This document shows positions 5,323-45,374 of a stretch of 64,000 nt of DNA, one piece after another. How positions within the stretch are numbered: the stretch's first letter is position 1; each line of letters opens with the position of its first letter. Under the pieces are notes generated by a model. The model worked only from the letters and a program-made list of their open reading frames with translations. It was not told the DNA's origin and ran no database searches. Source of the DNA: an uncultured Bacilli bacterium (GTDB lineage: Bacteria; Bacillota_I; Bacilli_A; RF39; UBA660); NCBI GenBank assembly GCA_947626515.1, contig CANQSL010000002.1:14339-78338 (forward strand), read 5' to 3'. A program made the position numbers and the translations under genes.

Positions 5323-7848
5323 ATGAAGAGAAATGAAGTAAACTATGAAGATTTATCTCCTATGATGCAACAATATTTAGATATAAAAAAAGATTATGAA
5401 GATGTGTTGCTTTTTTATCGTATAGGTGACTTTTATGAGTTATTTTTTGAAGATGGAGAAATAGCGAGTAGAGAATTAGAATTAACTTTAACAGGAAAAA
5501 ATGCTGGTTTAAAAGAAAGAGTCCCAATGTGTGGAGTTCCACATCATTCTGTAAAATCTTATATTGAAAAATTGGTTAATAAGTCTTATAAAGTTGCAAT
5601 AGTAGAGCAATTAGAAGATCCTGCTAAAACAAAAGGGATGGTTAAAAGAGGCGTAGTACAAGTATTTAGTAAAGGAACTTTGGTAGACTTAGAATATTTA
5701 GATAGTAAAGAGTCTAACTATATTGGAAGTATTTTAGATAATAATTATGAATTTATAATTACATATGCAGATATTTCTACGGGAAATTTATATAGTGAAA
5801 AAATATTAAAAGATAAAGATAAATTAATAAATGAAATTCTAAATTTAAATTTAAAAGAAATATTAATAAAAAGTGATTTTGATTTAGAAATTTTAAACAT
5901 ATTAAAAAATACATATGACATTAACATAACGATATCTGATAAGTTATTAGAAGATAAATATGAAAGTTGTTATAAAAAAGTAAATGATGAAAAAGTAATA
6001 GAAGGTATTAAACATTTATTTTATTATTTATCAGTAACTGAGTTAAACGAACTAGATCATATGATGGAAGTAGAAATAATAATAAAAGATAATTATTTGA
6101 ATATGGATATACATACAATAAGAAATCTTGAATTATTTGAAACTTTGAGATTAAAAGATAGACAGTATTCTTTAATATGGTTATTAGATAAAACGAAAAC
6201 TGCTATGGGATCAAGAACTTTAAAAAATATGTTACAACATCCATTAAAGGATAAGAAATTAATTGATGAAAGATTGGATATTATAGAAAAATTAAATAAT
6301 GAATTTATGTTGAGAGAACAACTTAGAAATGATTTATATGAAGTTTATGATTTAGAAAGATTATGTGGAAAAGTAATATGTGGTAGTTTAAATGCTAGAG
6401 ATATGTTACAAATAAAAAAATCTTTTAAAGTTTTGCCAAATATTGTAGAAATAATTAATAAATTAGGTTTAAATTACAAGTTGTCTACTCATGAAGATTT
6501 ATATAATTTGCTTGAAGATAGTATTTTTGAAGACCCTCCAATTACAATTAAAGAGGGAAATATAATAAAAATGGGATATAATAGTGAGTTAGATGAATTA
6601 AAGACTTTGCGCAGTGGTGGAAAAGAATTTATAAGTAGCTTAGAAATGACAGAAAGAGAAAAAACTGGTATAAATAATTTGAAAGTTGGATTTAATAAAG
6701 TATTTGGATATTATATAGAAGTATCAAAAGGTCAACTTGATAAAATAAAAGATGAATATGGTTGGGAGAGAAGACAAACCTTAACTAATGCTGAAAGGTT
6801 CATAACTCCACTTTTAAAAGAAAAAGAAGCATTGGTATTAAATGCTGAAGAAAAAATAATAGAGTTAGAATATAATTTATTTATTGAAATAAAAAATAAT
6901 ATAAAGAAATCGATTTCAGAAATAAAACGTACAGCTTACATATTAAGTTTGTTGGATGCTTATACATCACTATCTATAGTTAGTGAAGAATATAATTTAG
7001 TTAGACCAAATTTAATAGATGAAAGAGTAATTGACATAAAAGATGGTTTCCATCCAGTGGTAGAAAGTGTAAGTAATATAGAGTATGTAAAAAATGATAT
7101 TTATATGCCAAACAATGTAAATACTCTTTTAATTACTGGACCTAATATGAGTGGTAAAAGTACTTATATGCGACAGCTTGCTATAACAATTATTTTAGCT
7201 CAAATAGGATCTTTTGTACCAGCTAGCAGTGCAACCCTTCCAATATTTGATTCGATTTTCACGCGAATTGGTGCAAGCGATGATTTGGTTGGTGGAGAAT
7301 CTACTTTTATGGTAGAAATGTTAGAGGCTAAAAATGCAATAACAAATGCTACGCAAAACAGTTTAATTTTATTTGATGAGTTAGGAAGAGGTACTGCAAC
7401 TTATGACGGTTTAAGTATTGCACAGTCTATATTAGAATATGTAAATTCTAATATAAAGTGTAAAACATTATTTTCAACACATTATCACGAACTTACTGCA
7501 CTTGAAAATAATAATGGAATAAAAAATGTACATGTAGAAGCGACAGAAAAAGATGGAGTAATAACTTTTTTACACAAAGTAAAAGATGGTGCAGTCGATA
7601 AAAGTTATGGTATTCATGTTGCAAGTCTTGCTAATATGCCAGAAAGCGTAATATTAAGAGCAAAAGAAATATTAAACGTTTATGAAAATAATAAAAAAGA
7701 AGTTCCAAAAAAGACCGAACAAATTAAATTTGAGTTTGCCACTGAAGACAAGCTTTCAAAAGAATTAGATAAAATAAATATATTGAATATTACTCCAATT
7801 GAAGCGATAAATATATTATATAAACTGAAAGAATTAAATAAAAAATAG
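5323..7848 (+). CDS. mutS: DNA mismatch repair protein MutS
   Basis: N-terminal SPMMQQYLDIKKDY...FYRIGDFYELFFEDG, Walker A GPNMSGKSTYMRQ, STFMVEM, LFDELGRGT. ATG 5323 follows GAGG. Confidence 0.95.
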   Translation: MKRNEVNYEDLSPMMQQYLDIKKDYEDVLLFYRIGDFYELFFEDGEIASRELELTLTGKNAGLKERVPMCGVPHHSVKSYIEKLVNKSYKVAIVEQLEDPAKTKGMVKRGVVQVFSKGTLVDLEYLDSKESNYIGSILDNNYEFIITYADISTGNLYSEKILKDKDKLINEILNLNLKEILIKSDFDLEILNILKNTYDINITISDKLLEDKYESCYKKVNDEKVIEGIKHLFYYLSVTELNELDHMMEVEIIIKDNYLNMDIHTIRNLELFETLRLKDRQYSLIWLLDKTKTAMGSRTLKNMLQHPLKDKKLIDERLDIIEKLNNEFMLREQLRNDLYEVYDLERLCGKVICGSLNARDMLQIKKSFKVLPNIVEIINKLGLNYKLSTHEDLYNLLEDSIFEDPPITIKEGNIIKMGYNSELDELKTLRSGGKEFISSLEMTEREKTGINNLKVGFNKVFGYYIEVSKGQLDKIKDEYGWERRQTLTNAERFITPLLKEKEALVLNAEEKIIELEYNLFIEIKNNIKKSISEIKRTAYILSLLDAYTSLSIVSEEYNLVRPNLIDERVIDIKDGFHPVVESVSNIEYVKNDIYMPNNVNTLLITGPNMSGKSTYMRQLAITIILAQIGSFVPASSATLPIFDSIFTRIGASDDLVGGESTFMVEMLEAKNAITNATQNSLILFDELGRGTATYDGLSIAQSILEYVNSNIKCKTLFSTHYHELTALENNNGIKNVHVEATEKDGVITFLHKVKDGAVDKSYGIHVASLANMPESVILRAKEILNVYENNKKEVPKKTEQIKFEFATEDKLSKELDKINILNITPIEAINILYKLKELNKK

Positions 7849-14163: not shown

Positions 14164-15528
14164 ATGTTAAAAATAAAAACAGATTCTAGATTAGTAAATG
14201 ATGGAGATATTTTTGTAGCGATAAAGGGTCATACTGTCGATGGTCATGATTATATTGAAACTGCAATAAAAAATGGAGCTAAAAAAATTATTTGTGAGCA
14301 TGGAAAATATGATGTTGAAACGCAAGTTGTAGAAAATTCGGAAAAATATTTAAATGATTATTTAGTAAAAAACTATAGTTCTAAGTTTAAAGATATTAAA
14401 TTTATTGGTATTACTGGTACTAATGGAAAAACTACTACAGCATATTTAACTAGTCAAATTTTAACTAAATTGCATGTTAATAATGCTTATATAGGTACTA
14501 TTGGCTATTATTATAATAGTGAATTTGTACGAGAATTACCAAATACTACACCAGATATTTTGCTATTATATAATTTAATTTTGGAATCTATTGAAAAAGG
14601 TGCAGAAGTTATAGTCATGGAAGTTAGTAGCCATGCGCTTTCTTATGAAAGAATAAATGGCGTTAAATTTGATGTAGCAGGATTTACGAATTTAACAGAA
14701 GATCATTTAGATTATCATAAGACTATGGAAAATTATTTAGAAGCTAAAAAGAAAATATTAAATTATATTAAAGATGATGGTGTAATGATTTCTAATATAG
14801 ATGATGAATATGGTTTATCATTTAAATATAAGAACTTTAAATCTATAGGATTTAAAGATAGTGATTATCATATAATTGATTTTAAATTTAATAATTTAAC
14901 AACTAATATAAAGCTTTCTTATCAAGATAATATATATGATATAACTACTAATTTATTGGGAAAATTTAATATTTATAATTATATTACTGCTCTTTCTTTT
15001 GTACATAATTTAGGTTATAAAATTGAAGATATTATTAATGTTGCAAGTGAAATTTATCCACCAAGTGGAAGAAATGAAGCGATAGATGTATTTGGATCTT
15101 TAGCAATAATAGATTATGCTCATACACCTGATGCTGTTGAAAAAATAATATTGACTCATAAAGAAATGAATAAGGGTAAAATTATTACAATAGTTGGTTG
15201 CGGTGGAGATCGAGATCCAAAAAAGAGACCTATAATGGGAAATATTGCAACAGATTTATCTGATTATGTTATATTTACAGATGATAATCCAAGATGTGAA
15301 GATGAGAAAAAAATAATGGAAGATATACTAAAAGGTGTTTTAAAGGATAATTATAAAGTTGTATTTGATAGAAGGAAAGCAATAGAAGAAGGCTTGAGTA
15401 TGTTAGATAAAAATGATACTTTACTAATTTTAGGTAAAGGACATGAAGATTATCAAATAATAGGTACTAAAAAACATCATTTAAGTGATAGAGAAGAAGT
15501 TTTTAAATATATTGAAAATAATAAGTAA
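14164..15528 (+). CDS. murE: UDP-N-acetylmuramoyl-tripeptide synthetase MurE
   Basis: GITGTNGKTTT P-loop. The DNPR motif (TDDNPRCED) is typical of meso-DAP-adding enzymes. Confidence 0.9.
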   Translation: MLKIKTDSRLVNDGDIFVAIKGHTVDGHDYIETAIKNGAKKIICEHGKYDVETQVVENSEKYLNDYLVKNYSSKFKDIKFIGITGTNGKTTTAYLTSQILTKLHVNNAYIGTIGYYYNSEFVRELPNTTPDILLLYNLILESIEKGAEVIVMEVSSHALSYERINGVKFDVAGFTNLTEDHLDYHKTMENYLEAKKKILNYIKDDGVMISNIDDEYGLSFKYKNFKSIGFKDSDYHIIDFKFNNLTTNIKLSYQDNIYDITTNLLGKFNIYNYITALSFVHNLGYKIEDIINVASEIYPPSGRNEAIDVFGSLAIIDYAHTPDAVEKIILTHKEMNKGKIITIVGCGGDRDPKKRPIMGNIATDLSDYVIFTDDNPRCEDEKKIMEDILKGVLKDNYKVVFDRRKAIEEGLSMLDKNDTLLILGKGHEDYQIIGTKKHHLSDREEVFKYIENNK

Positions 15529-15554
15529 AATATTTGTAATTTTTATTTAAAATA

Positions 15555-15583
15555 TTGTTTCAAAATTAATAAAGTGTTATACT
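15555..15583 (+). promoter_or_regulatory. putative extended -10 promoter in the murE-downstream spacer
   Basis: TTGTTT (15555-15560), 17-nt spacer, TGtTATACT (15575-15583). Confidence 0.4.
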
Positions 15584-15589
15584 TATTTT

Positions 15590-15694
15590 AAGATAGGAAG
15601 TGATAAGATGAAATTTAGTTGTAATATACAAAAAATGAATTCTTATACTTCCTTTTCTTTATAAGAGTGTTTCTTTTTTGAGCACTCTTTTTTT
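15590..15694 (+). ncRNA. candidate structured leader or small RNA (two hairpins, 18-codon ORF)
   Basis: P1: aggaagtgataag (15595-15607) pairs with cttatacttcct (15642-15653), 12 bp with one bulge, sequestering the SD of an 18-aa ORF (15608-15664, MKFSCNIQKMNSYTSFSL). A terminator hairpin follows. Confidence 0.4.
15663..15694 (+). terminator. intrinsic terminator ending 1 nt before the RBS of the next gene
   Basis: Stem aagagtgtt (15663-15671) / agcactctt (15681-15689), 9-nt loop, T-run to 15694. GGAGGA at 15695-15700, ATG at 15705. Confidence 0.65.
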
Positions 15695-15704
15695 GGAGGA
15701 TTAA

Positions 15705-16688
15705 ATGAGTGAGCTAGAATTATTGGAAACATTAAAAGAACTATCTAAAAAAGAAATCAGTTTAACTGAGGTTAGCAAAATATTAAAGTGCGAAAAATAT
15801 GAAGCTTTATCTTTATTAAGAAAATTAAGATTAGAAGGTATTAATATATTTACTCAAAATAAGGATGATGATATATATATTCTTAATCAAGGAGAAAGTG
15901 AATTAAACGAAAATAATAATTATAAATTTCATACGGATGATAATCATGAGTTTAAATTTGTTGCAATATCTGATACTAGAATAGGCTCAACTTATCAACA
16001 ATTATCTATATTGAATGATATTTATTTAAAAGCATATGAATTGGGTTATAAAAATATCATATTATGTGGAAATATTTCTGAAGGACTATATCCATTAAAC
16101 AATGTTTATTCTCAATATAATTTTTTAGATGATACATTGAGGCAAGTAGATTATATAGTTGAAAATTATCCTTATATTGAAGGAATAAAAACTTATTTTA
16201 TAACTGGAGGAAAAGATGAAAAACATTTAAAAAATAACAAAATAAATATTGGAAAAAGAATTAGTGATTTAAGAAATGATATGATTTATTTAGGATATAA
16301 TTCTTGTGATATAACAATTGATAAAACTAAAATGTTAGTGTTTAATCCAAAATTAATTAAAACTTATACAGTTTCTTATAGACCACAACAACAAATTGAT
16401 TCTTTTAGAAGTGAAGATAAGCCAGATATATTACTATATGGTGGATTACTACAAATGGAAAAATTTACATATCGTAATGTTCAATGTATTTCTGTACCAA
16501 GCGTTTGTGCAACAACAAAAGAAATGTCAGATAAAAGACATTCTAATACTATTGGAGCGTGGTATGTTACGGTTAAAACCGATAGATATGGAAAATTAAA
16601 AAAATGTTGTGCAATAGATTCGGTATATTATAAAACTAATAAAGACGATTATTTAAATGCAAAAGTATTAAAGTTAACTAATAATTGA
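15705..16688 (+). CDS. wHTH-like N-domain plus degenerate (predicted inactive) calcineurin-like metallophosphoesterase paralogue
   Basis: Clearly homologous to the next ORF, but all metal-ligand motifs are altered: SDTRIGS, CGNISEG, TGGKDE, FNPK, YGGLLQ. Confidence 0.8.
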   Translation: MSELELLETLKELSKKEISLTEVSKILKCEKYEALSLLRKLRLEGINIFTQNKDDDIYILNQGESELNENNNYKFHTDDNHEFKFVAISDTRIGSTYQQLSILNDIYLKAYELGYKNIILCGNISEGLYPLNNVYSQYNFLDDTLRQVDYIVENYPYIEGIKTYFITGGKDEKHLKNNKINIGKRISDLRNDMIYLGYNSCDITIDKTKMLVFNPKLIKTYTVSYRPQQQIDSFRSEDKPDILLYGGLLQMEKFTYRNVQCISVPSVCATTKEMSDKRHSNTIGAWYVTVKTDRYGKLKKCCAIDSVYYKTNKDDYLNAKVLKLTNN

Positions 16689-16695
16689 GGTGGAT

Positions 16696-17688
16696 ATGGA
16701 ATACAGTAAAGAATATGTTGAAAAAATATATAAATATATAAAAAATAATTCTTCAGTAGAAGATTTTAAAGAAAAATTTCATCTTAATAATGTAGAATTA
16801 GAAGGACTACTAGAATTATTTAGAATATATGGTAAAAGAGTAGATATTGTTAATGATAATGATACTTTAATATTTGAAAAACCACTTAAAAAAAATATAA
16901 TAACTACTAAACCAAATTTAAATACAAATGAATTAATTCATACTGAAATTTGTGTAGTCTCCGATACTCATTTTGGAAATATTCATCAACAATTACATTT
17001 GTTAAATAAAGTTTACAAAGAAGCTTATAATAGGGGGATAACTACTGTCTTACACTGTGGAGATTTAGTTGATGGAAATTATTTGAATAGAGCTGAGCAA
17101 CCTAGGCAACAATTTTTACATGGTTTTGATGAACAAGCAGGTTATGTTGTAGATATGTATCCATTAATAAATGGCATAACTACTAAATATATATTGGGCA
17201 GTCATGATGAAACACATTATAAAAACGGACAGGCAACGATTAATAATTGGGTTTCTAGATGTAGAAAAGATATGGTGTTTTTAGGACAGGATAGTGCTGC
17301 TATTGAAATTAATGGAATTAAAATATTTATGGATCATCCAGGAGGAGGTTCTGCACAGTCTATCTCATATAAGCCTCAAAAAAGAATAGAAATATTAGAA
17401 TCATATTATAAACCTAAAATTTTACTCATAGGTCATTATCATAAAAGTTATTCTTTTGTATATCGCAATGTTAGGGGCGTTGAAATACCTAGTTTTTGTG
17501 ATAAAACACAATTTCAACAAAAGCAAGGATTATCGAATGTTGTTGGAGCTTATTTTTTAAATATATATTCTGATAATAAAGGAAATATACAATATTTTGA
17601 ACCTGAAGAGATAATTTTTAAACCAAGTGATATGTGGGAAGAAGCAGGAAAAGACAAAACGAAGGTGAAACAATTGGTTATAAAGTAA
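16696..17688 (+). CDS. wHTH-like N-domain plus calcineurin-like metallophosphoesterase (intact motifs)
   Basis: Motifs I-V: VSDTHFGN, CGDLVDGN, GSHDE, MDHPGG, IGHYH. ATG 16696 follows GAGGTGG. The ORF-track GTG is at 16690. Confidence 0.8.
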   Translation: MEYSKEYVEKIYKYIKNNSSVEDFKEKFHLNNVELEGLLELFRIYGKRVDIVNDNDTLIFEKPLKKNIITTKPNLNTNELIHTEICVVSDTHFGNIHQQLHLLNKVYKEAYNRGITTVLHCGDLVDGNYLNRAEQPRQQFLHGFDEQAGYVVDMYPLINGITTKYILGSHDETHYKNGQATINNWVSRCRKDMVFLGQDSAAIEINGIKIFMDHPGGGSAQSISYKPQKRIEILESYYKPKILLIGHYHKSYSFVYRNVRGVEIPSFCDKTQFQQKQGLSNVVGAYFLNIYSDNKGNIQYFEPEEIIFKPSDMWEEAGKDKTKVKQLVIK

Positions 17689-17768
17689 TATTTATTATTA
17701 CTTTTTTTCTTGTATCTATAAATATATTTTGATAAAATAAATTTTATATTTTGAAAGAAGTGTTAATT

Positions 17769-18992
17769 ATGTTTTGTAAAGAATTTTATGATACATTTAA
17801 TTTGCATAAAGAAGATATATTAGATGTACTAATTGAACATTATCATGAAAATAATAGAGATAAAATTATAAAAAGATTTAATAAAACTGATTTTGTATTT
17901 GAAAGCAATCCTGTAGATGAATATAATTATATGTTATTTAATGATTATAGTTTTAGAGATTTAATAAAATCACTAAAAGAAATTTTAATTTTTGAGAGAA
18001 ATTCTAAAAAATATAAAAAAGAATATTATAAATGGTTAGAAATATATATTAATACAAAATTATTACAAAAAGGTGAAATAAAATTGTCTAATGATAATGT
18101 TTGGAAAATTTTTTCAGACTATATCTTCGCTTTTAGTATAGATAGTGAAATACTTTTAAATAATGAGTCAACTCCTTCATCTGTAAAACAAAATATATTA
18201 GATAGAAAAAAATGTTTTTATGAAACTGTAAAAAAAGAAAATTTATGTATAGCTGTTGAATGTGATAGGGTGGAGGAATACTGTTCCTTTGTAAATGATG
18301 TCAAGGATTATTTTATGTGTGAGATAGCTAAGAAAACAAAATTAGGAAATTATTTACATAATAAATATAAAAGTCTTTTTGATATTAATATAAAAGAATT
18401 GGTGTTTGGAAGTACTAAAGCTTTTAATCTCACATTTTTTTATGATGATAATGATAAATCTAAATTTTATAAAATACTAAAATATCCTATAATGAGTTTA
18501 AAAAATAATAAAAGTAATAATTTAGATGTAACTTTAATGCATGAAATAATTCATAGTATAGAAACTAGTGAAAAGGGATTAGGTGTTGGAGTAGACAATA
18601 ATTCTAAAAATATTATTTTTAATGAAATTAGAACTCAAAAACTTGCTATAGAATTAACTAAAAAGTTACATAAAAAAAATATATTTATTTTTGATGATCC
18701 TAAAAATTATGAAGATGAATTTATGGATTCATATGAAATATATGCTCCAATAAGTTTTGATTTTATAACTAAATATGATGAGATAATTACTGATTGTGCT
18801 ATTAATAATACGCCGGATAAATTAGAAGAAATATTTGGAGAAAATTTTAAAGAGTATTCTAAATTATTAGATGAATTACATAGTAAAATAAAACAATATA
18901 ATGAATGTGGATATTCAAATAAAAATGTTACTAATGAAAAAGCATTAATATTAGTAAATAAAATGAATAAATATTATGAAAAAAAGAGATAA
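17769..18992 (+). CDS. hypothetical cytoplasmic protein with an HExxH zinc-metallopeptidase-like motif
   Basis: LMHEIIHSIE, followed 27 residues later by FNEIRTQ (a possible third ligand Glu). No signal peptide. ATG 17769 is preferred over TTG 17751. Confidence 0.6.
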   Translation: MFCKEFYDTFNLHKEDILDVLIEHYHENNRDKIIKRFNKTDFVFESNPVDEYNYMLFNDYSFRDLIKSLKEILIFERNSKKYKKEYYKWLEIYINTKLLQKGEIKLSNDNVWKIFSDYIFAFSIDSEILLNNESTPSSVKQNILDRKKCFYETVKKENLCIAVECDRVEEYCSFVNDVKDYFMCEIAKKTKLGNYLHNKYKSLFDINIKELVFGSTKAFNLTFFYDDNDKSKFYKILKYPIMSLKNNKSNNLDVTLMHEIIHSIETSEKGLGVGVDNNSKNIIFNEIRTQKLAIELTKKLHKKNIFIFDDPKNYEDEFMDSYEIYAPISFDFITKYDEIITDCAINNTPDKLEEIFGENFKEYSKLLDELHSKIKQYNECGYSNKNVTNEKALILVNKMNKYYEKKR

Positions 18993-38070: not shown

Positions 38071-41000
38071 GTGGCATACAAAGTAGAAAAGTTTGGTGAC
38101 CATAGAGAAAGAAGAAATTTCTCTAAAACGACTAATAAATACGAATTAAAAGATTTATTAGACATAGAAAAAGAATCATATAAATGGTTCTTGACAGAAG
38201 GTATTGAGGAAGTATTTGATGATTTATTTCCTGTAGAAAGTTTCACTGGTAATATATCTCTTAAATTTAGTGATTATTGTTTTGATGAACCTAGATACAG
38301 CGTAAAAGAATCTAAGGAAAGAATGGTAACATATTCTGCTCCTTTAAAGGTTCAAGCTCAAGTATTTTTAAATGAAACAGGTGAAGTTAAAGAACAAGAA
38401 ATATTTTTAGGCGATATGCCTATGATGACTGAGTCTGGTACATTTATAATCAATGGTGTTGAGCGTGTTATTGTATCTCAGTTAGTACGTAGTCCAAGTA
38501 TTTATTTTAAACGTGAAATAGATAAAAATGGGCGTCCAGTAGTAAGTGGAGAGATGATTCCAAATAAGGGTACGTGGTTGGAATTTGAACTAGATTCGAG
38601 AGATGTAATTTATGTAAGAATAGATAGAACAAGAAAAGTTACAGTTACGACTCTTTTGCGTGCTTTAGGATTATCTAGTGATGAAGAAATATTAGAGGTA
38701 TTTGGAGAGAATAGATTTATTAAAAATACATTAGAAAAAGATTCTACGAAGAATACTGATGAGGCTTTAATTGAAATTTATGAAAAATTAAGACCTGGTG
38801 AGCCTGCTACATTAGATTCTGCTAAAAATCAACTTATTACACGTTTCTTTGATAAATTCCGTTATGATTTAGCACGTGTAGGGCGTTATAAATTTAATAA
38901 AAAATTAAATGTATTAGATCGTTTATTAGGACAAAAAATAGCTGAAAACATAAAAGATGGTAAAGAAGTAATTGTTAAAAAAGATACTGTAATTGATAAA
39001 ACATTGTTGGAGACTATTAGACCTATTTTTGAAAAAGGATATAATTTAAAAGAAGTTACTATAAATGAAGAATTAGATGAATATAATAAAATTCAAGAAG
39101 TTTTAGTGTACGATAAAAATAATGAACAACAAAAGATAAAAATTATTGGTAATGATCAATCTATAGATTCTAGACGTTTGACTATTTCAGATATTTATGG
39201 TGCTGTTTCGTATTATTTAAATTTATTAGATGGTATTGGAAATATTGATGAAATAGATCATTTGGGAAATCGTAGAGTAAGACAGGTTGGAGAATTAATT
39301 CAAAATCAATTTAGAACTGGTATGGTTCGTATGGAAAGAGTTATTCGTGAAAGAATGACTACTCAAGAATTAGACACGGTTACTCCAAAAAGTTTAATTA
39401 ATATTCGTCCAGTAACTGCTGCAATGAAAGAATTCTTTGGTTCAAGTCAGTTATCTAAATTTATGGATCAAGTTAATCCGATAGCAGAATTGACTGATAA
39501 AAGACGTCTATCAAGCTTGGGACCAGGAGGTTTATCAAGAGATAGAGCTGGTATGGAAGTACGTGACGTAAATGTTTCTCACTACGGTAGAATTTGTCCT
39601 ATTGAATCTCCAGAAGGAGCAAATATTGGTCTTATTACATCTTTGGCAAGTTATGCTAAAGTTAATGAATATGGATTTATTATGACTCCATATAGAAAAG
39701 TAGTTGATTGTAAAGTAACAGATGAAGTAGTTTACTTAACAGCAGATGAAGAAAGTGATTATTATATAAGTCAAGCTACAATTGGAATTGATGAAAACAA
39801 TTATTTAACTGATAAAGAAGTTGTTGCACGTCTAAATGGAGAAAACGTAATAGTAAAGAAGGAATTAGTTAATTTTATAGATGTTGCTCCAAGCCAAGTT
39901 GTATCTATTACAACTAGTTGTATCCCATTCTTAGACCATGATGATGCACACCGTGCGTTGATGGGTTCTAACATGCAACGTCAAGCGGTTCCTCTTTTAC
40001 AAAGTGAAGCTCCACTTGTAGGAACTGGTGTTGAATATATTGCAGCTAGAGATTCAGGTTCTACAGTAGTTTGTAAAGCTGATGGTATTGTAGAATATGC
40101 TGATTCTAAAAAAATCGTTGTTAAAAATGCAAAAGATAAAGATGTCTATTATTTAGCTAACTATGAGAGAAGTAATGCTGAAACATGTATAAATCATACT
40201 CCAATTGTTAGAATTGGAGATAAAGTACATCGTGGTGAAGTTATTGCTGACGGAACTAGTACTAATAATGGAGAATTAGCTTTAGGTAAAAATATGACAA
40301 TAGCATTTATGACATTTAATGGTTATAATTATGAAGATGCTGTTGTATTGAATGAAAGATTAGTAAAAGATGATGTTTATACATCTTTACATATAGAACA
40401 TTACGATATTGACTGTCGTGATACTAAATTAGGACCAGAAGAAATTACAAGAGATATACCTAACGTATCTGAAGATTCAAGAAAAAATTTAGATGCAAAC
40501 GGTATTGTAAGAATTGGTACTGAAGTTCATGAAGGAGATATTTTAGTAGGTAAAGTTACTCCAAAAGGAGTTCAAGAACTTACTAGTGAAGAAAAGTTAT
40601 TACATGCAATATTTGGCGAAAAGACTCGTGAAGTTAGAGATACTTCCTTGCGTGTAGCTCATGGAGCAGACGGTATAGTTCATGATGTAAAAGTATTCAC
40701 AAAGGAAAATAGTGATGAATTACCAGCAGGCGTATCAAAAGTTATAAGAGTTTATATAATTCAAAAACGTAAGATACAAGTTGGTGATAAAATGTCAGGT
40801 CGTCATGGTAATAAAGGTGTTATTTCACTTATATTGCCAGAGGAAGATATGCCATATTTACCAGATGGTACTCCTGTAGATATAATTTTAAATCCACAAG
40901 GTGTTCCATCACGTATGAATTTAGGACAAATACTAGAATTACATTTAGGTATGGCTGCAAAGAAATTAGGTGTTTATTGTGCAACTCCAGTATTTGACGG

Positions 41001-41691
41001 TGCAACTGTTGACGATATAGCTGAAATGATGAAAGAAGCTGGACTAGATGAAGATGGTAAAACTGTTTTATATGATGGACGTACTGGAGAGCCATTTGAA
41101 AATAGAGTAGCTGTTGGAGTAATGTACATGATAAAACTTCATCATATGGTCGATGATAAGTTACATGCACGTTCAACAGGACCATATTCATTAGTTACTC
41201 AACAACCTTTAGGAGGTAAAGCTCAATTTGGTGGTCAACGTTTTGGTGAAATGGAAGTTTGGGCATTATATGCATATGGTGCTGCTCACGTATTACAAGA
41301 AATTTTGACTATTAAATCTGATGATGTTGTTGGTCGTGTTAAAGTATATGAAGCTTTAGTAAAAGGTAAAAATATTGCTCAAGCAGGTGTTCCAGAAAGC
41401 TTTAGAGTTTTAATAAAAGAATTCCAAGCATTAGGATTAGATATTTCAATTATTGATAACAATGATGAAATTCATAGTATAACTGATCTTGAAGAAGAAG
41501 ATGAAGATGAGGCTATAACTATTGATGAAATAGAAGCTAATAAGGATATACTTCCTACTAAGGAAGATGAAGAAGAACCATCTGAGCCAATTGAAACAGA
41601 AACTGATGAATTTGAAGAAAATGAAGAAGATATGCCAACTGATGAAGAATTAGAAGCTATAAATAATGGTGTAGAAGGGGAGGATATTTAA
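38071..41691 (+). CDS. rpoB: DNA-directed RNA polymerase subunit beta
   Basis: GTG start after [57 protein letters not shown]. Acidic C-terminal tail of about 90 aa. Confidence 0.98.
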
Positions 41692-44600
41692 TGTTAGAAG
41701 TAAATAATTTTAAAGGAATAAAAATAGGTATTGCGTCTCCTGAAAAAATTAGAAGTTGGTCTCATGGTGAAGTTACAAAACCAGAAACTATAAATTATCG
41801 TACCCTTAAACCTGAAAGAGAAGGATTATTTTGTGAAAAGATTTTTGGACCAACTAAGGATTATGAATGTAGCTGTGGAAAATATAAAAGATTAAGATAT
41901 AAAAATGTTATATGTGATAGATGTGGTGTAGAAGTAACTCGTTCAAAGGTACGTCGTGAACGTATGGGACATATAGAGCTTGCTTCTCCTTGTTCACATA
42001 TTTGGTTCTTTAAAGGCGTTCCTTCTAAAATGGGATTAGTTCTTGATATGTCTCCAAGAGATTTAGAAGAAGTTTTATACTTTGTAAGTTATGTAGTAAT
42101 TAATCCTGGCAATGCTCCACTAGAAAAGAAACAAACACTTTCGGACAAAGAATATAGAGCATATTATGAAAAATATGGAAACAGTTTTGAAGTGGGAATG
42201 GGAGCAGAAGCCATTAAGAAATTATTAGAACAAGTCGATGTAGATAAAGAAGTAGAAGATTTAAGAAAAGAACTTGATGGTGCAACTGGACAAAAGCGTA
42301 TAAGATTAGTAAAACGTTTAGATTGTTTAGTAGCATTCCAAGAAAGTGGAAATAAACCAGAATGGATGGTATTGGATGTAATACCAGTAATTCCACCTGA
42401 GTTAAGACCAATGATTCAATTAGATGGTGGAAGATTTGCTACTAGTGATTTAAATGATTTATATAGAAGAATTATAAATAGAAATAATCGTTTGAAAAAA
42501 TTATTGGAGTTAGGAGCTCCTACGATTATTGTACAAAACGAAAAACGTATGTTACAAGAAGCTGTTGATACATTGTTTGATAATGGTAGACGTGGAAGAA
42601 GTATAACTGCTGCTGGAAATAGACCGTTAAAGTCTTTATCTAGTATGTTAAAGGGAAAACAAGGACGTTTTCGTCAAAATTTATTGGGAAAACGTGTAGA
42701 TTATTCTGGACGTTCAGTTATAGTTGTTGGACCTAATTTAAAAATGTATCAATGTGGTATTCCTAAAGAAATGGCACTTGAATTATTTAAACCACATGTA
42801 ATAAACGGTTTGGTTTCTCGTGGTCTTGCACACAATATAAAGGGTGCTAAAAAATTAATAGATACTAGAAATGAATGTGTATGGGATATTGTTGAGGATG
42901 TTATTACAGAACATCCAGTAATGTTAAATCGTGCTCCAACATTACATAGATTAGGTATTCAAGCATTTGAGCCTAAATTAGTTGGAGGTAAAGCTATTAG
43001 ACTACATCCATTAGTATGTACTGCATTTAATGCAGACTTCGATGGAGACCAAATGGCAGTTCACGTTCCTCTTTCTGAAGAAGCAAAAGCTGAAGCAAGA
43101 ATTCTTATGTTAGGTGCAAATAATATTTTATCTCCTAAGGATGGTAAACCTATTGTTACACCTAGTCAAGATATGGTTTTGGGTAATTATTATATTACTA
43201 TTGAAGAAGCTGGACAAGAAAATGAAGGAAAAGTTTATAAGAATAGCAATGAAGCTATAATGGCTTATGAAAGAAGAGAGATTACATTACACACTAGAAT
43301 AGTAGTCCCTGTGTCTTCATTTAAACATAGAATATTTATAGAAGAAGTTCAAGATAAATATTTAGTAACAACTGCTGGTAAATTAATATTTAATGAAATA
43401 TTGCCAGATACATTCCCTTATATTAATGAACCTACTAAAGAAAATATTACTGGTGTTACACCTTTAAAATATTTCTTAGATAAAGGTGTAAATATAAGAG
43501 AAGAAGTTGCAAAAATGCCTTTAGTAAAAGCATTTGATAAGAAATTATTACAAAATATTATTGCTCAAATATTTAAATTATATAAAACAACTGAAACATC
43601 AATAATGCTAGATAAATTAAAAGATTTAGGTTTTAAATATTCTACATTAGCTGGTATTACAGTTTCTTTATCAGATATTATAGTAGATTCGTCTAAACAA
43701 GAATTTATTGATGCAGGGCAAGATAAAGTTAATAAAATTAACAAACAATTTTCACGTGGTCTTATAACTGAAGAAGAAAGATATACGAGCGTTTGTGCTG
43801 TATGGAATGGAGTTAAAGATCAAGTTAAAAATAAATTGAGTGATATTGCTAAGAATGATATGCATAATCCAGTATTTATGATGATGAATTCTGGAGCACG
43901 TGGTAGTGCCGATCAATTTTGTCAAATGGCTGGTATGCGTGGATTAATGGCTAAACCAAGTGGTGAATCAGTAGAAATACCAATATTATCAAGTTTACGT
44001 GACGGACTTTCAGTTAATGAATTCTTCTTAGGAACACATGGTGCTCGTAAAGGAGATACAGACACGGCTTTACGTACAGCTGACTCTGGATATTTAACTC
44101 GTCGTTTAGTAGATGTATCACAAGATATAATAGTTAAAGATGAGGATTGTGGTTGTGTCTCTGGATTAGTTGTAAAAGATTTAATAAATGATAAAGATGG
44201 AAGTGTTATTGAACCACTTGCTGAAAGATTATTGGGACGTTTTACTGCTAAAAAAGTTATTAATAAAGAAACAAAGGAAGTTATTGTTGATAAAGATGTT
44301 TTACTTACTGAAAATTTAGTTGCAAAAATAGAGGCAGCAGGTATTAAAGAAGTAGAAATAAGAAGTGTATTAACATGTAAAAGTCCTAATGGAGTATGTC
44401 AAAAATGTTATGGACGTAATTTAGCTACAGGAAATTTAGTTGAAACTGGTGAAGCTGTTGGTATTATGGCAGCACAATCAATAGGTGAACCTGGTACACA
44501 ATTAACAATGCGTACATTCCACTCTGGTGGAGTAGCAGGTGGAGAAGATATAACACAAGGTCTTCCTCGTGTTGAAGAACTATTTGAAGCTAGAAATCCA

Positions 44601-45374
44601 AAAGGAAAAGCTACAATTTCAGAAATTACTGGTAAAGTTGAATTAATAGAAGATGTTAATGGAAAATGGAAAATTGTTATAGCAAATAAAACAGAAGCTA
44701 GAGATCATATAACTTCATACGGGGCTAAATTAGTCGTTGAAGTAGGAGATGAGGTCTCTGCTGGAGATAAGTTAACTCAAGGTACAATTTCTCCAAAAGA
44801 ATTGCTAGCTGTAACAGATCCTATTACTACACAAGAATATATATTAACTGAAATACAAAAGGCTTATAAGAGTCAAGGTGTTGATATTTCAGATAAACAT
44901 ATTGAAATCATCGCTAGTCGTATGATTAATAAGATGAGAGTGGTTGATGAGGGAGATACTGATTTAGTTGCTGGCTTAACAGTAAGTATTAGAGAATTTA
45001 CAGAAAGAAATAAACAAGTACTTTTAAATGGTGGAATACCTGCTACAGGTAGGCCAATAATGCTAGGTATTACTAAATCATCTCTAGAAACTGATTCATT
45101 CTTATCAGCAGCTTCATTCCAAGAAACTACGAGAGTTTTAACTGATGCTGCAATAAAAGGAAAAGTTGACTTCTTAACTGGTTTAAAAGAAAATGTTATT
45201 ATTGGTAAACTTATTCCAGCAGGAACAGGTGCTAAACAATATAGCGATATAACAATAGAACTTGAAAAAGGATTAATGGATGATGAACCTAGTGAAGTAT
45301 TAGAAAATCAATTTTTAAGTTTAGAAGAAGATTCTAAAGAAAAATCAGAAATAGTTGAAGTTAAAGAGGCTTAA
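41691..45374 (+). CDS. rpoC: DNA-directed RNA polymerase subunit beta'
   Basis: TAATG overlap with rpoB. Zn finger [23 protein letters not shown] and catalytic [12 protein letters not shown]. Confidence 0.98.

Follow-up and report, generated by a model that had tools for sequence, protein, structure and literature searches.

The 64,000-nucleotide (nt) stretch analysed here (the window; positions 14,339 to 78,338 of contig CANQSL010000002.1, from an uncultured Bacilli bacterium) has a G+C content of ~24% and carries, in tandem on the + strand, two open reading frames (ORFs), each encoding a winged helix followed by a metallophosphoesterase (MPE) domain. ORF A (15705..16688, 327 amino acids (aa)) is a pseudoenzyme with a catalytically dead MPE domain, whereas ORF B (16696..17688, 330 aa from ATG 16696) has an intact MPE domain that resembles DP1, a subunit of the archaeal DNA polymerase PolD. 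The nearest relatives of the window are metagenome-assembled genomes of uncultured gut Bacilli, e.g., Clostridium sp. CAG:302 and Candidatus Coprovivens, the latter placed in 'Bacilli incertae sedis'.

Confirmed as full-length paralogues with a similarity far beyond chance, ORF A and ORF B share 31% identity over 301 residues (BLASTP, E 8e-46), and the profiles of the A and B families align with a probability of 100% (hhalign, E 2e-85) along 326 collinear columns, the N-terminal domain included. The sequence-only reading of the locus had described two adjacent ORFs, aligned along their whole length and separated by 7 nt; both ORFs are present at the coordinates it gave, on the + strand, all of its quoted peptide strings are found in the translations, and the gap is correct for an ORF B that starts at ATG 16696. 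This ATG is almost certainly the true start, because it is preceded by a Shine–Dalgarno-like GAGGTGG (16687..16693, + strand, by direct reading of the sequence) and the database protein (P0001) has 330 residues. The mechanical ORF list opens ORF B at GTG 16690 (332 aa), from which its residue numbers are counted throughout. The GAGGTGG overlaps the TGA stop codon of ORF A (16686–16688), which suggests that translation of the two genes is coupled.

The winged helices of ORF A (15705..15896, + strand; aa 1–64) and ORF B (16708..16878, + strand; aa 7–63) have the same order of three helices and two strands in AlphaFold2 (AF2) models, i.e., helices 3–13, 20–27 and 31–43 and strands 46–53 and 56–64 in ORF A, and helices 334–343, 350–356 and 361–373 and strands 379–383 and 386–390 in ORF B, in the numbering of a concatenated model. 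The predicted local distance difference test (pLDDT) score is 84–92 over residues 1–60, and 84–90 for the isolated ORF A domain, and the two domains align with each other by hhalign. In a Foldseek search with the isolated ORF A domain, the best matches are SqrR, NolR, HlyU and SmtB (root-mean-square deviation 2.1–2.7 Å over 56–63 residues, TM ~0.5), and the top 50 are all winged-helix proteins, nearly all of them DNA-binding regulators. In addition, distant relatives have sporadic Pfam matches to HTH_11, HTH_24 and TrmB. What had been read from the letters as winged-helix-like is thus predicted, by model and by structural match, to adopt an ArsR/SmtB/MarR-like winged-helix fold. These domains are less conserved than any other part of the proteins (41–42% identity) and have a mean net charge of −4.4 in A and +0.6 in B. 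Charge and low conservation argue against DNA binding, if not decisively, and leave it doubtful; binding of a protein, or dimerisation, is at least as likely a role.

Catalytic residues of the live and the dead copy

Motifs were compared in a joint alignment of orthologues, 74 of A and 73 of B, taken from 75 related genomes. The MPE domain of ORF B (16942..17619, + strand; aa 85–310) carries D92-T-H94, G-D125-LV-D128, G-S171-H172-D173, D215-H216 and G-H249-Y-H251, whereas the degenerate domain of ORF A (15951..16619, + strand; aa 83–305) carries D90-T-R92, G-N123-ISE, G-G-K-D171, F-N-P-K and G-G247-L-L249 as its former motifs. In motif I, D92 and H94 are invariant in B, while A retains the Asp (D90) and has Arg (R92) in place of the His. 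In motif II, D125 is found in 72 of the 73 B orthologues and D128 in all of them, and A has N123 in 74 of 74. In motif III, S171-H172-D173 is invariant in B, and A retains D171, varies at the positions of S171 and H172, and has Gly or Lys at position 169. The D215-H216 pair of motif IV is likewise invariant in B, and A has no His there, with Asn or Ser at position 214. Lastly, H249 and H251 of motif V are invariant in B, their places being taken in A by G247 and L249. All 74 A orthologues have lost the catalytic His and six of the seven metal ligands, and a profile-level alignment of the A and B families (hhalign) reveals no replacement ligands at shifted positions.

The assignment of a dead and a live copy, made previously from the single pair, therefore holds in every orthologue examined, with two refinements. 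ORF B does keep the five motifs, and their ligands are conserved across the orthologues; 'intact' is nevertheless slightly generous, since motif III is GSHD in 73 of 73 orthologues, with Ser replacing the canonical metal-ligand Asn (GNHD) that single-copy relatives have at this position. ORF A had been described as substituted at every motif, and six of its seven ligands are indeed gone, but D90 of motif I and D171 of motif III are kept.

By profile score, ORF B exceeds the Pfam gathering thresholds for Metallophos_2 (PF12850; 37.4 bits, cut-off 27) and Metallophos (PF00149; 36.4 bits, cut-off 21.5) and is assigned to the calcineurin-like metallophosphoesterase superfamily. ORF A has no match in Pfam or NCBIfam. 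Its fold homology is certain by profile comparison, because the A family aligns with the B family at an hhalign probability of 100%, and it can be called an MPE pseudoenzyme by descent only.

ORF A is not in decay: across species, its MPE core has 64% identity (74% for ORF B), the ratio of nonsynonymous to synonymous substitution rates (dN/dS) is 0.01–0.18 (0.01–0.15 for ORF B), and purifying selection on it is strong, almost matching that on ORF B. The former active-site region is highly conserved across orthologues, and a patch specific to ORF A, R235-S-E-D-K-P240, is invariant. ORF B, for its part, ends in a conserved, charged tail that is absent from ORF A (17620..17685, + strand; residues 311–332; DMWEEAGKDKTKVKQLVIK in the window, consensus D.WDEaGKDk.KVKkLvIk, 62% mean pairwise identity across orthologues) and that may be a docking peptide for a partner.

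Partly degenerate A-like paralogues occur in other lineages (P0248, P0270, P0289, P0302, P0338 and P0365). Their pattern, D-R-D-E-E-H-D-x-H-H-L/C, has most of the ligands and lacks the motif I His and the last His of motif V, which suggests, on comparison of these sequences, a stepwise inactivation.

Some related uncultured Bacilli (order RFN20) have been reported to reassign CGG or AGG (PMC8629427). An alternative code was rejected for the window, where Arg codon usage is standard: AGA is the dominant Arg codon and encodes R92 of ORF A, AGG occurs at conserved Arg columns, and in 32 long ORFs (~15,600 codons) CGG is absent and AGG is rare (22 per 10,000).

Relationship of ORF B to PolD DP1

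The ten best Foldseek matches in the PDB are all DP1 (E 1.4e-8 to 6.5e-7), followed by MJ0936, Vps29, Mre11, Rv0805, LpxH and Dpb2, the B-subunit of Pol epsilon (8p5e_F). When a profile of 42 family sequences is run against the PDB sequences as a whole, DP1 (E 2.5e-7) is the only match besides a marginal one to MJ0936 (E 0.007). In an NCBIfam scan of 42 family members, the DP1 model NF003118 matches 41 (best E 2.9e-15), the YfcE model seven, and the Mre11 and SbcD models one each; every score falls well short of the DP1 cut-off. The family profile is needed for the PDB sequence search, which returns nothing useful with ORF A or ORF B alone; the A-family profile finds nothing significant there (DP1 E 0.78, HlyU E 0.92). 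DP1 is thus the nearest characterised MPE clade by structure, profile and NCBIfam, the point that the sequence-only reading had left to such searches, and its comparison of the pair with polymerase B-subunits proves to be more than an analogy.

DP1 is the proofreading exonuclease of the archaeal family-D DNA polymerase (5ihe, 6hms, 8ppt), and its set of MPE ligands is that of ORF B. In both proteins, the motif III His follows the motif II Asp at a distance of 47 residues (D404–H451 in DP1, D125–H172 in ORF B), and a Phe follows the motif V His at a distance of 24 residues (H562–F586 in DP1, H251–F275 in ORF B). The strongest likeness lies after motif V, where ORF B reads GHYHKSY..YRNV..PSFCDKTQFQQK and DP1 reads GHVHVY..YRGV..TWQAQTEFQK, and includes a Q-T-x-F-Q motif in which F275 of ORF B aligns with the base-stacking F586 of DP1. 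In the cryo-electron microscopy structure of PolD in editing mode, two extended DP1 loops admit only single-stranded DNA, and F586 stacks on base −2 in the exonuclease channel, where the F586A substitution lowers exonuclease activity (PMC10721889). Both extended insertions, which in DP1 carry the aromatic residues of the exonuclease channel, are found within the MPE domain of ORF B on the + strand, after motif II (N-R134-x-E-Q-P-R-Q-Q-F-L-H-G-F-D-E-Q149) and after motif V (C270-D-K-T-Q-F275-Q-Q-K). The loop that joins motifs II and III (NR.EQPRQQFLHGFDEQ) hardly varies.

Unlike DP1, ORF B has GSHD rather than GNHD in motif III, is bacterial, and has a dead paralogue as its partner instead of the DP2 polymerase subunit. 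PolD is exclusive to Archaea, and the active DP1-type phosphodiesterase has been described as polymerase-associated and archaeal (PMC10721889). No large conserved neighbour is present at 73 related loci, a survey that did not include a search aimed at DP2. From these sequence comparisons, we conclude that ORF B would work like the phosphodiesterase domain of DP1, yet is not a DP1 orthologue.

Three further groups of proteins bear comparison with the pair. Like ORF A, the B-subunits of eukaryotic Pol alpha, delta and epsilon contain inactivated MPE (phosphodiesterase) domains that are retained as structural partners in a complex. ORF A, however, was inactivated independently, in a bacterial duplication, has no OB fold, and pairs with an active paralogue rather than with a polymerase C-terminal domain, no link to a polymerase being in evidence. 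The Mre11/SbcD nucleases, which act as dimers, share superfamily and catalytic chemistry with ORF B and are among the weaker Foldseek matches. No Rad50/SbcC-like or large ATPase neighbour recurs at the related loci, and the two loops, long in both DP1 and ORF B, are short in Mre11 (PMC10721889). As for MJ0936, YfcE and Vps29, the best Pfam score of ORF B is to Metallophos_2, MJ0936 and Vps29 are the next structural matches after DP1, and Vps29 uses the MPE fold as a non-catalytic scaffold; these are single-domain proteins of 160–190 residues, however, without a winged helix or DP1-type loops.

Linkage, fusion and genomic surroundings

The ORF A homologue lies directly upstream of the ORF B homologue in 73 of 75 loci, and the remaining two loci are interrupted by contig ends. 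Adjacency is thus found in 73 of 73 loci where the contig permits a view, and the concern raised at the outset, that relatives might not keep the pair together, does not apply. At 19 loci, A and B are fused into a single ORF of 661–686 aa, always in the order A–B (dead–live), and the fused forms make up three separate clades nested among the split forms in a neighbour-joining tree. An exhaustive search of 1.84 billion representative proteins yields 2179 relatives, most of them single genes of 300–420 aa with fully canonical motifs. More than 120 clusters of fused proteins came from a protein database search. Among the relatives listed, ~14 are distant double-domain proteins (27–35% identity), each with a degenerate N-terminal and an intact C-terminal half; MEK7599170.1, annotated as Patescibacteria, is one of these and has the dead–live order. 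Because fusion and fission recur in a fixed order across deep divergence, these sequences provide strong, though indirect, evidence that the two halves act together, short of proof that they touch, and we regard a functional pairing of A and B as highly probable.

All other synteny around the pair has been lost while its adjacency is complete. No conserved neighbourhood exists, the best recurrent neighbours covering 24 of the 73 loci, and the adjoining genes vary from genome to genome and are housekeeping ones, i.e., those for EngA, SpoIVA, ValS and TrkAH, or MurE and Suf genes as in the window. In these genomes, MurE is less conserved than ORF B (57% and 56% vs 78% and 70%).

The most frequent neighbour is a small, co-oriented gene directly upstream of the pair (24 of 73 loci). 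In eight loci (L003, L005–L007, L010, L024, L043 and L057) this gene encodes an NT5C-type 5'(3')-deoxyribonucleotidase (Pfam E 2e-13), with an HD/YfbR-like 5'-deoxynucleotidase gene one gene further upstream in L005–L007. In the other 16 (L025–L030, L033, L044, L047, L053, L055, L056, L059–L061 and L075) it encodes a protein of 157–173 aa with a DxDGV N-terminus and no Pfam match, possibly HAD-like. Neither type of gene adjoins the pair in the window. In one distant locus (L083), a 120-aa paralogue of the single-stranded DNA-binding protein (SSB; 5462–5824) lies directly upstream of, and in the same orientation as, a dead–live fusion of 704 aa (P0424); adjacency to SSB is confined to this one distant fused clade and is not seen at the other loci. 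The nucleotidase and SSB neighbours are weak hints of a role in DNA or nucleotide metabolism: they fit an enzyme that frees 5'-deoxynucleotides from single-stranded DNA, without establishing that function.

Single-copy winged-helix–MPE proteins of prophages and phages (e.g., P0475, P0482 and the BFVD entry A0A516LV74) share the architecture of ORF B, with 30–40% identity and canonical DH/DD/NHD/H/HH motifs, but have no dead partner, occur in viral contexts, and have Asn rather than Ser in motif III. BFVD contains viral proteins of this architecture (best E 7e-22, TM 0.72), several of them annotated 'DNA polymerase II small subunit'. Two relatives were looked up in their prophage context: one (L076, 8001–9101) is preceded by a replication module (IstB-like, SSB) and followed by the genes for the small and large terminase and the portal, and the other (L078, 8001–8939) lies between tail-fibre genes and a CHAP endolysin. 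Some single-copy relatives (P0269, 678 aa; P0316, 648 aa; and the BFVD entry A0A8S5P6X8) have a ~330-residue LAGLIDADG insert between MPE motifs IV and V that looks, by its sequence, like an intein. Inteins are typical of replication and repair proteins, and these are a further weak hint of DNA or nucleotide metabolism.

The window's own clade is cellular, not viral. A defence or phage origin of the pair was rejected: PADLOC has no defence-system match for ORF A or ORF B, PHROG gives weak matches only, IMG/VR contains no relative of the B clade, and a search of isolate phages returned one match, to an archaeal virus. Gp48, a mycobacteriophage MPE and the one characterised phage MPE that we found, was rejected as a relative because its motif I lies at residue 10, which leaves no room for a winged helix.

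The sequence-only reading had not recognised this architecture as a characterised bacterial family, and we found no description in the literature either of the architecture or of a dead/live MPE pair. Public annotations offer only 'metallophosphoesterase family protein', 'predicted phosphodiesterase' or 'hypothetical protein', and the JGI names of some relatives are 'predicted phosphodiesterase/biotin operon repressor' and 'transcriptional regulator'. The pair belongs to a known superfamily, as a variant of it that is uncharacterised.

Between murE and ORF A lies a region of 176 nt (15529..15704, + strand) with a fold z-score of −3.07. It contains an 18-codon ORF (15608–15664, + strand; MKFSCNIQKMNSYTSFSL) with its own Shine–Dalgarno-like AGGAAGTGA, the stop codon of which overlaps a terminator-like hairpin (15663–15689, + strand). 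The hairpin is followed by a T run and stands directly before GGAGG (15695–15699) and the ATG of ORF A. This hairpin region could be the terminator of murE, or a leader or attenuator of the pair; a riboswitch was rejected, there being no Rfam match. Downstream, 62 nt beyond ORF B, a 413-aa ORF (17751–18992) has no Pfam or NCBIfam match and no homologue by tblastn in the 75 related loci. The 64-kb window contains no tRNA genes and no Rfam families at gathering score. Two large ORFs of 1206 and 1227 aa (38071–45374) lie in a stretch with a G+C content of ~31%, vs ~24%.

Interpretation and alternatives

Overall, the pair is best read as an obligate enzyme/pseudoenzyme complex that has one active site and trims single-stranded 3' ends, a reading to which we give somewhat more belief than doubt. 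An ancestral winged-helix–MPE phosphodiesterase, which would survive as the single-copy prophage gene, may have been duplicated, after which the upstream copy would have lost both metal sites and the downstream copy kept both. A and B would then be the two halves of one enzyme, a complex with only one active site that takes the form of a heterodimer (in the window) or of one dead–live polypeptide (in many relatives). The active half would be a free-standing relative of the DP1 proofreading domain that has kept the two extended loops. Because these are the loops that restrict DP1 to single-stranded 3' ends, the likeliest chemistry would be 3'-to-5' exonucleolytic trimming of single-stranded nucleic acid to 5'-mononucleotides. 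The dead half and the two non-basic winged helices would position the substrate or tether partner proteins. Exonuclease chemistry on nucleic acid, as predicted from sequence, falls a little short of an even chance when taken by itself, and it is from sequence that we infer the nucleic-acid substrate and the polarity.

Several observations weigh against this reading. The enzymatic activity of ORF B is a prediction from sequence, as is the physical interaction of A and B, and the single-chain AF2 model of the concatenated pair from the window (mean pLDDT 79) has a predicted template modelling score (pTM) of 0.50, so that the placement of the two halves is not confident and a dimer geometry is unsupported. 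The similarity of the family to DP1 is strongest over ~50 residues, and ORF B scores 35.9 bits against a curated cut-off of 445 for the DP1 models (NF003116–NF003120), far below the level of an equivalog. The two proteins have a winged helix and a ~20-residue linker instead of an OB fold or a DP1-type N-terminal domain; the phosphate-binding R499 of DP1 has no counterpart (ORF B has H216-P-G), and the equivalent of Y412 is uncertain, Y131 of ORF B being one to two residues out of register. The Ser for Asn in motif III is out of the ordinary and could point to another metal or substrate. The nucleotidase and SSB associations are minority patterns, and small nucleotides are the substrates of many MPE enzymes whose cores are similar.

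In an alternative that we hold improbable, ORF B would be a phosphodiesterase of small nucleotides, with a signalling nucleotide (cyclic or linear), a 2',3'-cyclic phosphate or a dinucleotide as its substrate. The winged helices would make A and B ligand-coupled regulators of transcription, with ORF A as a sensor or repressor that binds the substrate or product in its dead pocket. The N-terminal domains do share the ArsR/SmtB/MarR repressor fold, some relatives bear regulator-type JGI names and Pfam HTH_11 matches, enzymes of the MJ0936, YfcE and Rv0805 type, which act on small substrates, are among the structural matches, and the former active-site region of ORF A is highly conserved. However, the winged helices are acidic in A or neutral in B and are the least conserved parts of the proteins, the related loci have no conserved operator-bearing neighbourhood or target operon, and the DP1-specific loops together with the stacking Phe point to a polynucleotide substrate.

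We consider it very unlikely that the pair derives from phage as a module, domesticated or selfish, in the manner of toxin–antitoxin or defence systems, in which ORF B would be a potentially toxic nuclease and ORF A its stoichiometric inhibitor. The single-copy relatives next to terminase and portal or to tail-fibre and endolysin genes, and the viral proteins of the same architecture in BFVD, would suit such a module, as would a neighbourhood that differs in almost every genome. In addition, one described phage MPE has DNase activity and is toxic to the host (PMC12287305). On the other hand, stable fusion in many lineages is not expected of a toxin and its antitoxin, selection is strongly purifying, MurE is less conserved than B, the pair lies among housekeeping genes rather than in defence islands, PADLOC and IMG/VR give no match, and the mycobacteriophage enzyme lacks the winged helix. 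There is, lastly, only a slim chance that A and B form no complex and are merely co-transcribed paralogues, an enzyme and a protein with an unrelated binding or scaffolding role: the unconfident inter-domain placement, an interaction that we infer, and the invariant patch of ORF A itself would allow this, but fusion in a fixed order is found repeatedly, in three clades as well as in distant phyla, the genes stay adjacent throughout although all other synteny is gone, evolutionary rates are matched, and the genes appear to be translationally coupled.

A broader extension of the enzyme/pseudoenzyme reading, which we think unlikely as a whole, would make the proteins a free-standing sister family, bacterial and phage-borne, of the DP1 exonuclease. 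The family would be the source pool of single-strand-specific 3'-5' exonucleases that supplied archaeal PolD, and by way of PolD the eukaryotic B-subunits, with a phosphodiesterase domain. The bacterial lineage would have taken the step from an active to an inactive phosphodiesterase partner a second time, independently and within one complex, and the pair would be an accessory exonuclease tethered by its winged helices to replication or repair partners. With the substrate-selecting loops of DP1, this widespread family of bacteria and phages would provide an outgroup from which to trace how PolD proofreading and the eukaryotic B-subunits arose.

Uncultured gut Bacilli with small, low-GC genomes have conserved the pair in at least 73 species, and it therefore probably belongs, unannotated, to the core nucleic-acid metabolism of these bacteria. 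With single-copy, split-pair and fused dead–live forms side by side, the family is a clean system for the study of pseudoenzymes, in which it becomes approachable to ask why a pair of enzyme and pseudoenzyme with one active site supplants a presumably homodimeric enzyme. It is of interest mainly for its evolutionary tie to DP1 and the B-subunits and for this natural series of single-copy, split and fused forms.

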